Shown: piece after piece, positions 8,004-17,065 of the stretch
Numbering within the stretch: position 1 is the stretch's first letter
How the letters are laid out: each line of letters starts with the position of its first letter
Source of the DNA: Vulcanimicrobiota bacterium
GTDB lineage: Bacteria; Vulcanimicrobiota; Vulcanimicrobiia; Vulcanimicrobiales; Vulcanimicrobiaceae
DNA length: 19,740 nucleotides
Reading direction: 5' to 3'
Assembly (NCBI GenBank): GCA_003135555.1
Contig: PLCF01000089.1
Coordinates: forward strand, 1 to 19,740
Made by a program: the position numbers and the translations under genes
Notes under the pieces: model-generated
The model's database searches: none
Told to the model about the DNA's origin: nothing
What the model saw: only the letters and a program-made list of their open reading frames with translations

Positions 8004-9092
8004 ATGCCCGCCAATATCGTGATGCCGAAACTCGGGCTGACGATGACGAGCGGGACGATCGCGCGCTGGATCAAGCGTCCGGGCGACGCGGTCCGCGCGG
8101 GCGAGCCGCTGGTGGAAGTGTCGACCGACAAGATCACCTACGAGGTCGAAGCGCCGGCCGGCGGAACGCTGGCGCAGGCGCTGGGCAACGATGGCGACGA
8201 GTTCGCCTGCGGCGACGTGATCGGCACGATCCGCCTCGCCGGCGAATCCGATGCGATGGTCGCGGCCCCGGTCGAGGCCCCGCCGCCGGGTGCGAGCAAC
8301 GGCACGCGCGTCATCGCGTCGCCGGCTGCGCGCCGGCTCGCGCGCGAACACGGCGTCCCGCTCGGCGAGGTGCGCGGCACCGGCCCGCGCGGGCGGATCA
8401 CGCTCGCAGACGTGCCCGTACTCCCGTCGAGCTCGCCGCCGGATCGGTTTCCCGCGCGGTTGCCCGCCGCGCGCCGCCCGATCTACCGCAAGATGACCGA
8501 GGTGGCGCTGCTCCCGCTCGCGCAAGTCGAGACCGTCGCGCGGGTCGACGCGGTGAAAGCGCTGATCCAACGGCGCGGCGATTTTGGCTGGACCGCGTTC
8601 ACGGTGTATGCGGTGGCGCGGCTGCTGCAGGAACACGCGGACCTGCGCACCGACGCATCGACGGGTGCGCCGTTCGAGCGCGTCGATATCGGCGTCGCCG
8701 CCGACACGCCGCACGGCCTGATCGTCCCCGTGGTGCGCGACGCCGGCGCGCGTACCTTGGCCGAGATCCAGCGCGAGATCGTCCGCCTCGCGTCGGCGGC
8801 GCGCGACGCCGCGCTCGGTCCCGGCGACGTCGGGGGCGCATGCTTCTCGATCTCCAACGTCGGACCACAGGGCGTGGAACGCGTGGTCCCGCTCCCCGAC
8901 CCGCCGCAAACCGCAATCCTCGGCATCGGCGCGGTCACCCAGCGCCCCGCGGTCGTGGAAGGTGCCGTCGCGCCGGCCTGGATGCTCACGTGCGTGGTCT
9001 CGTTCGACCATCGCTTCATCGACGGCGCCCCCGCCGCGCGCTTTCTAGCCGCGCTCGCGCACGCATTCACCGACCCCGGAGTCTTGCTCTAG
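8004..9092 (+). CDS. acoC: Dihydrolipoamide acyltransferase E2 subunit
   Basis: Lipoyl domain (MPKLGLTM...VSTDKIT), E3/E1-binding domain (ASPAARRLAREHG...GTGPRGRIT), catalytic FSISNVG and FDHRFIDG. Confidence 0.85.
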   Translation: MPANIVMPKLGLTMTSGTIARWIKRPGDAVRAGEPLVEVSTDKITYEVEAPAGGTLAQALGNDGDEFACGDVIGTIRLAGESDAMVAAPVEAPPPGASNGTRVIASPAARRLAREHGVPLGEVRGTGPRGRITLADVPVLPSSSPPDRFPARLPAARRPIYRKMTEVALLPLAQVETVARVDAVKALIQRRGDFGWTAFTVYAVARLLQEHADLRTDASTGAPFERVDIGVAADTPHGLIVPVVRDAGARTLAEIQREIVRLASAARDAALGPGDVGGACFSISNVGPQGVERVVPLPDPPQTAILGIGAVTQRPAVVEGAVAPAWMLTCVVSFDHRFIDGAPAARFLAALAHAFTDPGVLL

Positions 9093-9106
9093 TGATTCAA
9101 GAAGGC

Positions 9107-9232
9107 ACAATGGTCATGGACCGAGCGCAGCAGCATCCTCCGCGTAGCAGGGCGTCGTTGCGAGGTCAAACCCGGGGGCCCCACGCAAAGCGTGGGGGGC
9201 GCGCAGCGAGAGCGGAGCGCCGTTAAAATGGA
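9107..9232 (+). mobile_element. 126-bp interspersed repeat, copy 1 (MIRU-like start-codon insertion; 118-bp unit bounded by AATGG direct repeats)
   Basis: 123/126 identical to the reverse complement of 12271-12396. AATGG at 9109-9113 and 9227-9231. Internal hairpin CCCCACGC-AAA-GCGTGGGG. Internal ORF 9110-9226. Confidence 0.8.
9110..9226 (+). CDS. 38-aa mini-ORF inside repeat copy 1 (putative translational-coupling peptide)
   Basis: GAAGG-caca-ATG GTC ATG GAC...CGT TAA-A-ATG; MVMDRAQQHPPRSRASLRGQTRGPHAKRGGRAARAERR. Confidence 0.45.
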   Translation: MVMDRAQQHPPRSRASLRGQTRGPHAKRGGRAARAERR

Positions 9233-11540: not shown

Positions 11541-11863
11541 GCGTTGGGGCGAATGCGCCGGCGCAGGTCGGGTCCGACGAGTTGCTCGACCAGCAGCGCC
11601 ACGACCAGCATCCCGGTTTCGATGAGGGTGAACGCCCGCGCGGTCGGCATCCCCGGTCGCGCGATCAGCGCTGCGAGGATCAGCAACCCGAAGCCGATGA
11701 GAAACCGCACCACGCCGCGGGCGAGCACCAGCGGCATGCGCACGGAGCCGGCGACGTCGCGCGCCAGGCGCAACGGCGGACGGGTCCCGATGTCCCAGAC
11801 TGTGAAGGCGAGCGCGTCGAACACGATCGCCAACGCGAACCGGACCACGACGAGCGTGCTCAC
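11537..11863 (-). CDS. Small membrane protein (about 3 TM), downstream of sufU
   Basis: Three hydrophobic segments; begins 16 bp after the sufU stop; stop overlaps the convergent lipoprotein stop (CTAG). Confidence 0.6.
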   Translation of the reverse strand: MSTLVVVRFALAIVFDALAFTVWDIGTRPPLRLARDVAGSVRMPLVLARGVVRFLIGFGLLILAALIARPGMPTARAFTLIETGMLVVALLVEQLVGPDLRRRIRPNA

Positions 11864-11879
11864 GTCGTAACGCGGTGCC

Positions 11880-12275
11880 TTAGTGCGGTTCGTCGGGCCA
11901 GGAGGCGATCTCGCCGAGCGCGGCGCTCTTGAGCACCTTGAGCCCGAGCATCGCGCACTTCATGCGCGTCGGGCTGATACCGATCCCGACGTTCTCGAGC
12001 ACCGCCTCTTGCGGCAGCCGAGCCACGTCTTCGAGCTTCATCCCCTTGATCGACTCGGTCAGCATCGAAGCCGAGGCTTGCGAGATCGCGCAGCCGCGCC
12101 CGCTGAACTTGATGTCCTCGACGCGCTGATCTGCGTCGAGCGCGAGCTCGATTCGAATCGTGTCCCCGCACAACGGATTGAGGTCCTCAGCGCTCGCATC
12201 GACCCTTTCGAGATGCCCAAAATTCCGCGGACTCCGATAGTGGTCGAGGATGTACTCTTTGTAGAAATCGTCCAT
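11880..12275 (-). CDS. sufU: SufU/IscU-type Fe-S assembly protein
   Basis: YKEYILDHYRSPRNFG, NPLCGD, GRGCAISQAS, PTRMKCAML; follows sufS. True ATG is at 12275. Confidence 0.88.
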   Translation of the reverse strand: MDDFYKEYILDHYRSPRNFGHLERVDASAEDLNPLCGDTIRIELALDADQRVEDIKFSGRGCAISQASASMLTESIKGMKLEDVARLPQEAVLENVGIGISPTRMKCAMLGLKVLKSAALGEIASWPDEPH

Positions 12276-12396
12276 TTTAACGGCGCTCCGCTCTCGCTGC
12301 GCGCCCCCCACGCTTTGCGTGGGGCCCCCGGGTTTGACCTCGCAACGACGCCCCGGTACGCGGACGATGCTGCTGCGCTCGGTCCATGACCATTGT
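12271..12396 (-). mobile_element. 126-bp interspersed repeat, copy 2 (fills the whole sufS-sufU intergenic space)
   Basis: Inverted copy of 9107-9232 with 3 substitutions. Begins on the last base of the sufS TGA and ends in the sufU ATG. AATGG direct repeats 118 bp apart. Confidence 0.8.
12277..12393 (-). CDS. 38-aa mini-ORF inside repeat copy 2
   Basis: sufS TGA-ca-ATG...TAA-a-ATG sufU; MVMDRAQQHRPRTGASLRGQTRGPHAKRGGRAARAERR. Confidence 0.45.
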   Translation of the reverse strand: MVMDRAQQHRPRTGASLRGQTRGPHAKRGGRAARAERR

Positions 12397-13646
12397 CACG
12401 AGAGGCGGAAGACGTCGGCGGCTTTTTCTAGCGCGCGGACGAGGGCGTCGACGTCTTCTTCGGTGTTGTAGAGGTAGAACGACGCACGGGCGGTCGCGGG
12501 CCAGCCCATCTTTTCCATCAGCGGCATCGTGCAGTGGTGGCCAGCGCGCACGCAGACACCTTCGGTGTCGAGGATCGAGGCCAAGTCGTGCGCGTGGATG
12601 TCGCCGAGGTTGAACGAGATCACGCCGGCGCGGTCTTCGGCGCGCGGCGGCCCGTAGACCGCGAGGCCACGCGACTCGAACGCACGCAGCTGGGCGAGCG
12701 CATACGCGGTGATGCGGATCTCGTGCGCGCGCACCCAGTCCATCCCGATGTCGCTGAGGTAGTCGACCGCCGCGCCGAGCGCGATCGCGTCGGCGATGTT
12801 GCTGGTGCCGGCCTCGAACTTCCAGGGCAGTTCGTTGTAGGTCGTCGTCTCGTAGGAGACGCGCTTGATCATGTCGCCGCCGGTCAAGAACGGCGGCATC
12901 GCCTCGAGCAGTGCGCGCTTGCCGTACAGGAACCCGATCCCGGTCGGGCCGCACATCTTGTGGCCGCTGGCGGCGAGGAAGTCGACGTCGAGCGCCTGCA
13001 CGTCGACGGGCATGTGCGGGACCGACTGCGCGGCGTCGACGAGCACGACGGCGCCGGCGGCGTGCGCGCGCGCGACGATGACGTCGAGCGGCGCGATCGA
13101 CCCGATCGTGTTCGAGATGTGGGCGAGCGCGACGAGCTTCACGCCGGCGAGCAGATCGTCGAGATGCTCGAGCGCCAACACGCCGTCGCGGTCGGCCGGG
13201 ATGAAGCGCAGCTCGGCGCCGGTCTTGGCGGCGAGAAGCTGCCACGGCACGAGGTTGGAGTGGTGCTCGAGTTGGGTGGTGAGGATCGCATCGCCGGGCC
13301 CGAGGTTGGCCAGGCCCCACGAGAAGGAGACGAGGTTGATCGCCTCGGTCGTGTTGCGCGTCCAGATGATCTCGGCGGTGTCGGCGGCGTTGACGAAGCG
13401 GGCGACCTTCGCACGCGCAGCCTCGAAGGCGTCGGTCGCGCGTGCGGCGAGCTCGTACACGCCGCGATGGATGTTGGCGTTGTCGTTCTCGTAGTAGTCG
13501 ACCAGCGCTTGGATCACCGCGCGCGGCTTCTGCGAGGAGGCGGCCGAGTCGAGGTACACGAGTCGTTTGCCGCGCGACGTGAGCTTGGCCAGGATCGGGA
13601 AGTCGGCGACGATCGCTTCCTGCTTGCGGTCCGTAGCTTCGATCAT
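12396..13646 (-). CDS. sufS: Cysteine desulfurase, class II (SufS)
   Basis: LVYLDSAASSQKP, NANIHRGV, EHHSNLVPWQ, PLP lysine SGHKMCGPTG, catalytic VRAGHHC. Confidence 0.96.
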   Translation of the reverse strand: MIEATDRKQEAIVADFPILAKLTSRGKRLVYLDSAASSQKPRAVIQALVDYYENDNANIHRGVYELAARATDAFEAARAKVARFVNAADTAEIIWTRNTTEAINLVSFSWGLANLGPGDAILTTQLEHHSNLVPWQLLAAKTGAELRFIPADRDGVLALEHLDDLLAGVKLVALAHISNTIGSIAPLDVIVARAHAAGAVVLVDAAQSVPHMPVDVQALDVDFLAASGHKMCGPTGIGFLYGKRALLEAMPPFLTGGDMIKRVSYETTTYNELPWKFEAGTSNIADAIALGAAVDYLSDIGMDWVRAHEIRITAYALAQLRAFESRGLAVYGPPRAEDRAGVISFNLGDIHAHDLASILDTEGVCVRAGHHCTMPLMEKMGWPATARASFYLYNTEEDVDALVRALEKAADVFRLS

Positions 13647-15850: not shown

Positions 15851-15868
15851 CGACTTCCGTGGTACCGT
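15840..15868 (+). promoter_or_regulatory. Sigma70-type promoter of sufR
   Basis: TGGACT (15840-15845), 17 bp, TACCGT (15863-15868) with TGn extended -10. Confidence 0.55.
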
Positions 15869-15878
15869 GACCGTGGCA

Positions 15879-16538
15879 ATGCACGACCGGTTTTTCGACT
15901 CCACGCGCGGGAAAATCGTCGGCGCCCTTCGCGAGCGCCCGTCGGCATCGGCATTCGATCTCGCCACCTTGTTCGGACTGTCTCCCAACGCGATCCGCCA
16001 GCAGCTGGTCGTCCTCGAACGCGATGGGCTCATCGCCGGGCGCAGCGTCCGGCGCGGGAAGACCAAGCCGACGGTCGAGTACTCGCTCACCGCCGAGGCG
16101 GCGCGCTACTTTCCGCAGCGCTACGACAAGATGCTCAACGCCGTGTTGCGCGAGATCCGCGTCGCCGGCGGCGACGGGGCGGTCAAGGCCGTCTTCGAGC
16201 GGATCGGCAAGCGCACCGCGGACCGGCTGGGCGCCGTAACCGAGGAGCACCCGGCCGAGGAACACCTGACCAAGGTCGTCACGGCACTCAAGGCAGCCGG
16301 GGTAAACGCCGAGCTGCAGAAGACCGCGGACGGGACGTTGCTGCTGCACGAGCACGCCTGCCCGTACGCGACGGTGGTCGCCGAGAACCCCGAAGCTTGC
16401 GGCGCCATCCACACGATCCTCGACAGCGTCGCGCCCGGGCGAGCGCGCCAAGTCGAGAGCCTCGCAACCGGCGGCGCCGAATGCCGATTCGAGATAGACG
16501 TAGACACCGTGCCGAGAAAGACCACTGCAACCGCATGA
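15879..16538 (+). CDS. sufR: SufR-like Fe-S-sensing HTH transcriptional regulator
   Basis: STRGKIV...LSPNAIRQQLVVLERDGLI...YSLT...FPQRY; C-terminal C-X12-C-X27-C; divergent from sufC. Start ATG 15879 is preferred from the promoter position (GTG 15867/15873 are alternatives). Confidence 0.85.
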   Translation: MHDRFFDSTRGKIVGALRERPSASAFDLATLFGLSPNAIRQQLVVLERDGLIAGRSVRRGKTKPTVEYSLTAEAARYFPQRYDKMLNAVLREIRVAGGDGAVKAVFERIGKRTADRLGAVTEEHPAEEHLTKVVTALKAAGVNAELQKTADGTLLLHEHACPYATVVAENPEACGAIHTILDSVAPGRARQVESLATGGAECRFEIDVDTVPRKTTATA

Positions 16539-17065
16539 ATTTCGCTAAATTTCAAGAGCTCGTCGAGCATCGGACCGGATTTCGGACGATGGAGAAGCCG
16601 ACCGCGAGCGGTGAGTACTTCAGCGACTCGTGCGGCGATCTGTACACGTTCTTCTTGAAAGTCGGGCCGGGTGACGTGATCGAGGACGTCTCGTACTTCA
16701 CGACCGGGTGCGGTTTTGGGACCGCGACGTGTTCGCTGCTGGTCGAGTTGGCCAAGGGCAAGACGGTCGACGAAGCGCTGGCGATCACCGACGCCGACAT
16801 CGAAGCCGCCCTCGACGGGTATCCCGAAAAGAAGAAGGACTACCCCGAGCGGTCGCGCTTCGCGCTGCAGGCCGCGATCGAAGACTATCGGGCCAAGCGC
16901 GCGGCCGGCCAGATCACCGACGCGATGCTCGAAGAAGCGCGCGCGACCGTCGCGGCGGCTTCGGCTGCCGCGAACCAGCGCGGGAACGGCACGACCCAAG
17001 AGGATGCCAAGGCCGACCCGCGCGTCCTCGAAGACGCCGGCGTCCTCACCATCAAGCTCCATTAG
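16535..17065 (+). CDS. Atypical IscU/NifU-N-like scaffold protein
   Basis: ATGA overlap with the sufR stop; SCGD, TTGCGFGTATC, LAKGKTVDEA, ALQAAIEDY; third canonical Cys absent. Confidence 0.82.
   Translation: MNFAKFQELVEHRTGFRTMEKPTASGEYFSDSCGDLYTFFLKVGPGDVIEDVSYFTTGCGFGTATCSLLVELAKGKTVDEALAITDADIEAALDGYPEKKKDYPERSRFALQAAIEDYRAKRAAGQITDAMLEEARATVAAASAAANQRGNGTTQEDAKADPRVLEDAGVLTIKLH

Follow-up and report, generated by a model that had tools for sequence, protein, structure and literature searches.

A dispersed operon repeat of Vulcanimicrobiaceae carries a stop-to-start reading frame that likely relays ribosomes across its insertions

The dispersed repeat described here carries a reading frame that runs from the stop codon that ends the gene upstream to the start codon of the gene downstream, and this frame likely relays ribosomes across the insert and preserves the translational coupling of the host operon, as judged from sequence comparison. 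Two copies lie in the window, the 19,740-nucleotide stretch of a Vulcanimicrobiota contig that was analysed. The window's genome (G000, 84% complete) holds 43 copies by profile search and 41 by pattern. The repeat is structured and about 120 nt long (copies about 117-130 nt); roughly half of the G000 copies are of type A, like the copy at the sufS-sufU junction, and the others join the same 3' module to a different 5' arm. Among the core operon pairs that flank it are rpsH-rplF, pheS-pheT, purB-purC, sucC-sucD, gatA-gatB, fliF-fliG, grpE-dnaJ and several nuo pairs, with names inferred from the Pfam families of 139 of 215 flanking ORFs, and these genes share no common pathway. The element occurs in both orientations relative to its neighbours: both flanks lie on its own strand in 104 of 172 type-A copies, while 34 of 163 classified copies, about a fifth, face a gene on the opposite strand.

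Copy 2, of type A, occupies 12271..12396 on the minus strand, its ends being approximate, between sufS (12396..13646, minus; cysteine desulfurase family, PF00266; TGA at 12396-12398) and sufU (11880..12275, minus; NifU_N, PF01592; ATG at 12275). Its mini-ORF (12277..12393, minus) runs from the first ATG through 38 codons and a TAA without an internal stop, with a second in-frame ATG at 12387-12385, and the exit junction TAA-A-ATG (12273..12279, minus) comprises the mini-ORF stop, a single nucleotide and the sufU start. Copy 1 (9107..9232, plus) follows a 2-oxoacid dehydrogenase E2 gene and precedes an SDR gene; its ATG-started ORF (9110-9226, plus) ends in a TAA 1 nt before the SDR ATG at 9228. 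Across the window's strands, the two elements are 98% complementary. An earlier note, made from the letters of the window, had reported an uninterrupted 38-codon frame ending TAA-A-ATG in both copies, running in copy 2 from 2 nt after the sufS stop to 1 nt before the sufU ATG, with a GGAG 10 nt ahead of the downstream ATG and three differences between the two ORFs, all of them non-synonymous. These observations were borne out: both frames translate without a stop, the positions agree, the GGAG of sufU lies at 12289-12286, and the translations give P/R, S/T and R/G. What that reader missed is an in-frame GTG overlapping the upstream stop in both copies. In copy 2 a GTGA (12396..12399, minus) overlaps the sufS stop at -4 spacing and lengthens the mini-ORF to 40 codons, and in copy 1 a GTG overlaps the E2 TAG (TAGTG, -1), giving a mini-ORF of 44 codons (9092..9226, plus). 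Because the frames reach back to these GTG codons, both window copies touch a gene at each end. Neither a sigma-70-like promoter nor an intrinsic terminator was found in window positions 11800-12700; TAAAAT at the exit was considered as a -10 box and rejected, since it overlaps the sufU start codon itself. At 15867-17065 (plus), a gene for a winged-helix regulator and another gene with a NifU_N domain are oriented divergently to the suf operon.

Openness of the frame is by itself a weak signal, because a body shuffled at the composition of the copy (70% GC) stays open 51% of the time (P about 0.5). The informative signal is where the frame ends across many copies. We assembled 172 distinct type-A copies at 97 sites, from the window's genome and the loci L001-L311, and classed the downstream neighbour by a codon model trained on G000: 129 neighbours lay on the same strand (sense copies), 34 lay on the opposite strand (controls), and 9 were unclear and left out. 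Each frame was scored from the conserved ATG position, and a relay was defined as an end 4-12 nt past the terminal 3' stem. The frame ended there in 108/129 sense copies vs 8/34 controls (Fisher 6e-11), and with one copy per site it ended at the downstream start in 58 of 66 sense sites vs 7 of 26 control sites (median p 3e-8). When bodies and tails were permuted among sense copies, 64.7±4.0 relays were expected against the 108 observed and none of 20000 permutations reached that number, although such p-values overstate the case because the copies share ancestry; the same permutation among controls gave 8.5 against 8 observed, which is not significant.

This result holds with other end windows and in several subsets of the data. 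Where both flanks were called alike, the relay was present in 84/104 sense and 4/19 control copies. The window's genome alone gives 14/18 vs 0/4, and a second genome alone (G010) gives 9/11 vs 3/7, which is not significant (p=0.14). Eighty copies came from a pattern blind to both start and tail, a subset that matters because the pattern used on GTDB fixed one tail base, and here the relay was found in 47 of 57 sense copies vs 8 of 22 controls. An unpublished genome (G044) supplies one copy and one junction row, and the result is unchanged without its copy (107/128). Variants with other 5' arms, scored under a looser definition, show the relay in 33/48 vs 0/9 (permuted 16.8±2.4). The relay is not required everywhere, since about a fifth of the copies face an opposite-strand gene and, of the 19 whose flanks both lie opposite, just some appear to carry a bridge on the reverse strand.

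The 21 of 129 sense copies that lack a simple relay comprise 11 premature stops and 10 read-throughs, four of which run more than 100 nt past the end, and several of the 21 have a second bridging frame. One of the nine filled sufS-sufU alleles, that of G041, has a frame ending 17 nt inside sufU. Where the stop-to-start gap was read (n=96) it was +1 in 46 copies, -4 in 20 and 0 in 13, and these count as efficient spacings because they fall inside the range of -4 to +3 given for efficient coupling in the passages seen of PMC12548453. The commonest gaps among 1840 close gene pairs of G000 are -4 (456) and -1 (119). At the 5' end, an exact -1 or -4 overlap with the upstream stop occurs in 33 of 94 copies; of the starts that overlap the upstream stop, 35/41 are in frame, and the figure is 14/19 when starts within the element's own run are set aside. 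Two further features of the flanking frames were noted. The downstream frames at one G000 copy (contig C21, near 12300) and at L064, L109, L164 and L263 seem to begin with ATC or CTG at the usual ATG position, which makes these candidate non-canonical starts. On G000 contigs C19 and C62, where the element has another 5' arm, the frame of the upstream gene apparently continues to the tail stop as a C-terminal extension.

Copies of altered length re-couple by other routes. Among copies whose length shifts the frame, 31/45 still couple vs 9.6±2.3 under permutation, either by an altered tail or by overlapping at ATGA: in-phase sense copies retain the usual tail stop in 76/84 cases and off-phase ones in 10/45, and the 30 phase-2 copies place their stop at the ATGA position in 21 cases and use a new tail stop 1 nt earlier in 9. 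Indels in separate modules also offset one another, leaving 84 copies in phase vs 55.7±5.1 with module lengths shuffled, an excess that control copies lack. Some orthologous sites (29, 30, 46 and 78) carry different phases, each re-coupling differently. Within the variable loop, stop triplets fall by frame as 4/23/33 in sense copies vs 8/3/7 in controls (p=5e-4). The earlier note had proposed that stops and frameshifts should be depleted across copies with dN/dS near 1, and each of these is seen: loop stops are depleted in the relay frame, net shifts are compensated either within the element (84/129 in phase) or at the junction, and pN/pS, taken over 45 sense copies of equal length, comes to 1.12 overall and 0.91 in the loop.

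In the same 45 copies entropy is equal across the three codon positions. Where internal frameshifts have been compensated, the middle of the peptide differs. At sufS-sufU, two remnants with internal deletions (G037, 36 nt; G006, 27 nt) preserve the frame: each has a start at -1 or -4 and a bridge that stops 1 nt ahead of sufU, and frames likewise span several unrelated inserts at this junction. That selection acts on the start, the frame and the stop position, and not on the peptide, is well supported by these comparisons, as is the earlier contention that an open frame of the right length matters more than what it encodes; the relay reading with which that contention was put forward appears supported across the family.

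A ribosome-covered frame could also serve as a shield against polarity: ribosomes on the insert would prevent Rho-dependent termination or decay of the mRNA, and the GGAG of the element would let the downstream gene initiate on its own. Polarity is described in the passages seen of PMC12548453, and such a shield would account equally for the depletion of stops and the unselected peptide. A GGAG at fixed distance is present in 121/129 sense copies, barely more conserved than in controls (28/34), and the sufU start has drifted to GTG or TTG in two of the nine filled alleles, both of which would suit independent initiation. Coverage, however, needs no stop that follows the downstream start as closely as -4 to +1 nt, and no switch to ATGA when the frame shifts. 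We therefore regard the shield as improbable in place of the relay, while noting that the two are not mutually exclusive.

The frame might instead be a neutral by-product, owed to descent from a few master elements and to insertion at start codons, and unselected since. The copies are related, a 70% GC frame of this length is open about half the time as noted above, and in controls the ATG persists in 24/34 and the tail stop in 15/34, so these parts were inherited; because control copies still carry them, we take the relay parts to be built into the element. Controls from the same pool nevertheless decay, with premature stops in 13/34 vs 11/129 sense copies, the compensation between modules is confined to sense copies, and the four orthologous sites that differ in phase are each re-coupled in their own way. 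Only sense copies keep or rebuild the bridge, which argues that host selection maintains it. The by-product reading is thus largely refuted, and we hold it to be very improbable.

The element is predicted to fold into four helices. In copy 2, helix 1 (12336..12384, minus) is a stem with a tandem G-A internal loop that encloses the variable loop of about 30 nt, helix 2 (12306..12324, minus) is a hairpin with a 3-nt loop, and helices 3-4 (12282..12305, minus) form a terminal domain with a GNA/GNA internal loop that carries the GGAG. Over 64 copies these helices are 99.3% paired, and 5 of 23 pairs show two-sided changes, figures that exceed those of shuffled and slid controls; in helix 1 such changes occur in 16 of 64 rows. 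The pairing figures favour the drawn structure because it was built from the same 64 sequences. Helix 2 shows 63 G-T pairs vs 2 A-C mismatches, which places the fold on the element's own strand. Folding of the single sequence gives weak evidence (z=-1.8). RNA prediction has the stem after GGA paired (P unpaired 0.09, 128 copies), so that in a copy left untranslated the start region of the downstream gene would likely be concealed. C-GNA-G loops are common, and variation in the 3' module falls mainly on the N of GC-GNA-GC; in the passages seen of PMC13037366, GNA-type motifs are described as very stable DNA mini-hairpins that are weaker in RNA, and by analogy the loops hint at a single-stranded DNA stage.

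The conserved, strand-specific fold with its compensatory changes and its paired stem adjoining GGAG could also be expected of a cis-regulatory RNA that senses a ligand or protein and gates the downstream ribosome binding site, with the ORF as an accessory. The absence of a shared pathway among flanking genes, the patchy presence of the element in both orientations, loops that fit DNA-type mini-hairpins (PMC13037366, in the part seen) and the lack of any match at E<=1 among Rfam covariance models over the window (0 matches) argue against this, and we give it little more than marginal credence. Least probable of all is an Arg-rich leader peptide, the alternative raised in the earlier note, which would stall ribosomes and in this way control the downstream gene: Arg makes up 20% of residues in the 108 relay peptides and 45 of them end in RR, yet pN/pS is about 1, codon-position entropy is level, peptide middles are swapped, remnants with almost no peptide persist, no Pfam family matches the mini-ORF peptide, and richness in Arg, Gly and Ala follows from GC content.

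Returning to the relay, its carrier is probably confined to one bacterial family of soil and peat, the Vulcanimicrobiaceae. Of 81 further genomes from this family, 29 contain the exact 3'-module pattern; of 69 from the phylum's other families, none does. A pattern scan of GTDB returned at least 121 loci, most with titles of Vulcanimicrobiota or Eremiobacteraeota, from which the family name is deduced, and a few of other phyla; no mycobacterial title occurs among the matches listed. The matches listed do include records under the names Binatia (7 loci, one MAG), Limnocylindria, Acidimicrobiaceae and Acidoferrum (L077, L090, L114-L116, L122, L123, L055, L097, L110, L130), which may reflect either transfer between phyla or mislabelled bins. 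Some loci show rearranged forms: a swapped-arm variant, with the arms of helix 1 seemingly in reversed order and the same 3' module, is present at L051, L056, L097, L153 and L157, and tandem pairs are present at L041, L091, L129 and L244. At L041, the frame of the first copy continues into the second, which has its stop next to the SDR start.

Occupancy of orthologous sites varies. The full element sits at the sufS-sufU junction in 9 of 34 genus genomes examined (of 44), and the filled/empty label must change 7 times on the tree, with at least 5 of these called for by well-supported branches; empty alleles have a stop 1-3 nt from the ATG or overlapping it. Peat metagenome contigs that skip the element at this junction (likeness 85) possibly come from other species and were not counted. 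One genome (G051) is filled while its two nearest rows share a 2-nt gap, which favours gain, even though the tree alone cannot separate gain from loss. At the start of the SDR gene, 13 of 30 loci carry the element. The window copies match each other at 97%, but the sufS-sufU copy matches those at the same junction in four relatives at only 80-86%, which points to recent copying or gene conversion. Two filled alleles have GTG or TTG sufU starts (L002 and L003) but the remaining 25 genus rows all have ATG, which might mean that the element relaxes the constraint on the start codon. These junctions also receive other insertions: a second, unrelated palindromic repeat family lies at sufS-sufU and E2-SDR in other genus genomes (L006, L022, L025-L027, L030, L036, L038, L183, L189), some of its sufS-sufU inserts having frames that open at -4 and end close to where sufU starts, and L184 (G031) has at sufS-sufU an unrelated 121-nt insert whose 41-codon ORF looks hydrophobic and overlaps both sufS (-4) and sufU (-1).

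The repeat is likely non-autonomous. No transposase family appeared among the 139 flanking ORFs identified from 215 candidates, and viral contigs, phages and plasmids gave no match to the element. Within the genus, whose genomes are incomplete MAGs, PF01797 is absent from the window's genome (0/1) and present in 2/44, and neither of its two loci carries the element; PF02371 (IS110 family) is present in 8/44, with the 3' module at 0 of 19 loci by pattern. Together these give 0 of 21 loci with the element, in a search directed at these two families. Exact inverted matches between the two ends reach no more than 3-4 nt in 147 of 171 copies, and no terminal inverted repeat was found. Nor was a target duplication found, direct matches between left flank and tail averaging 3.56 vs 3.52±0.06 when permuted, although old copies may have lost one. 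It is conceivable, if unlikely, that the repeat represents a new class of mobile element free of terminal repeats, moved by some enzyme as folded single-stranded DNA and homing to the coupled stop/start junctions of ribosomal, respiratory and biosynthetic operons as a portable coupling lock. If so, its own ribosome binding site would stay folded until a relayed ribosome melted it, and with each insertion the downstream gene would come to depend strictly on the upstream one being translated.

REP and REPIN elements are non-autonomous palindromic intergenic repeats associated with RAYT (Y1 HUH) transposases. Our repeat resembles them in being non-autonomous, palindromic and intergenic, with hairpins suited to single-stranded DNA, but it differs in that neither PF01797 locus of the genus carries it and in lying mostly in sense, directly before start codons. 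MITEs, as described in the passages seen of PMC3184786, are similarly shorter than 200 bp, without a transposase, structured and sometimes ORF-bearing, while our element lacks both terminal inverted repeats and an excess of direct repeats at its ends. The Neisseria REP2 and Borrelia IR repeats bear promoters upstream of co-regulated genes, according to the same passages (PMC3184786), whereas the element here is intercistronic, spanned by a coupled ORF and without a sigma-70-like site.

MIRUs (mycobacterial interspersed repetitive units), in the passages seen of PMC12548453 and PMC3184786, are repeats of 40-100 bp with tetranucleotide direct repeats (PMC3184786) that insert at start codons, with an ORF coupled at -4 (PMC12548453). 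The likeness is extensive: both are short, GC-rich repeats dispersed at about 40 copies per genome inside operons (PMC12548453, PMC3184786), with filled and empty orthologous sites and an ORF that overlaps or abuts the adjacent genes (here at the 3' end in 108/129 copies and exactly at the 5' end in 33/94), its downstream coupling having been proposed for MIRUs to render insertion harmless. Set against those descriptions, our element is larger, exits mostly through a stop, 1 nt and a start with a built-in GGAG, showing -4 only in off-length copies, has no direct repeats detected at its ends, and adopts a four-helix fold with interchangeable 5' arms. We do not file it as a MIRU because its size and ends differ, the comparison being one of description and not of sequence homology. 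The concept of a relay has already been proposed for MIRUs, for which the idea of a selfish repeat with a disposable frame is stated as a likelihood in the passages seen (PMC12548453, PMC3184786); a statistical test of selection on the frame, as given here, was not met in the review passages. No published description of the repeat family itself was found in the open literature searched.

We propose that a ribosome finishing sufS would restart at the overlapping GTG or a nearby ATG, and in moving on would melt three hairpins, including the one that holds GGAG. It would then stop at TAA and re-initiate at sufU 1 nt on, or a new ribosome would load there, with GGAG helping; in the general case, the stop would lie at -4 to +1 from the next start and re-initiation would follow. 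The element would bring the parts, namely a run of starts, the GGAG and a tail stop, and host selection would keep them or rebuild them after frame-shifting indels. Spread might proceed through a single-stranded DNA form and local gene conversion, which is the weakest step of the scheme.

Such small ORFs are a warning for annotation, being selected yet without a useful peptide. Its 97 sites, three length phases, sense copies, opposite-strand controls and deletion remnants make the family a natural experiment that shows which stop/start spacings selection accepts, and it makes the question of re-initiation versus RNA unfolding testable. Overall, comparison of its copies provides evidence that a disposable reading frame can allow selfish repeats to live within core operons.
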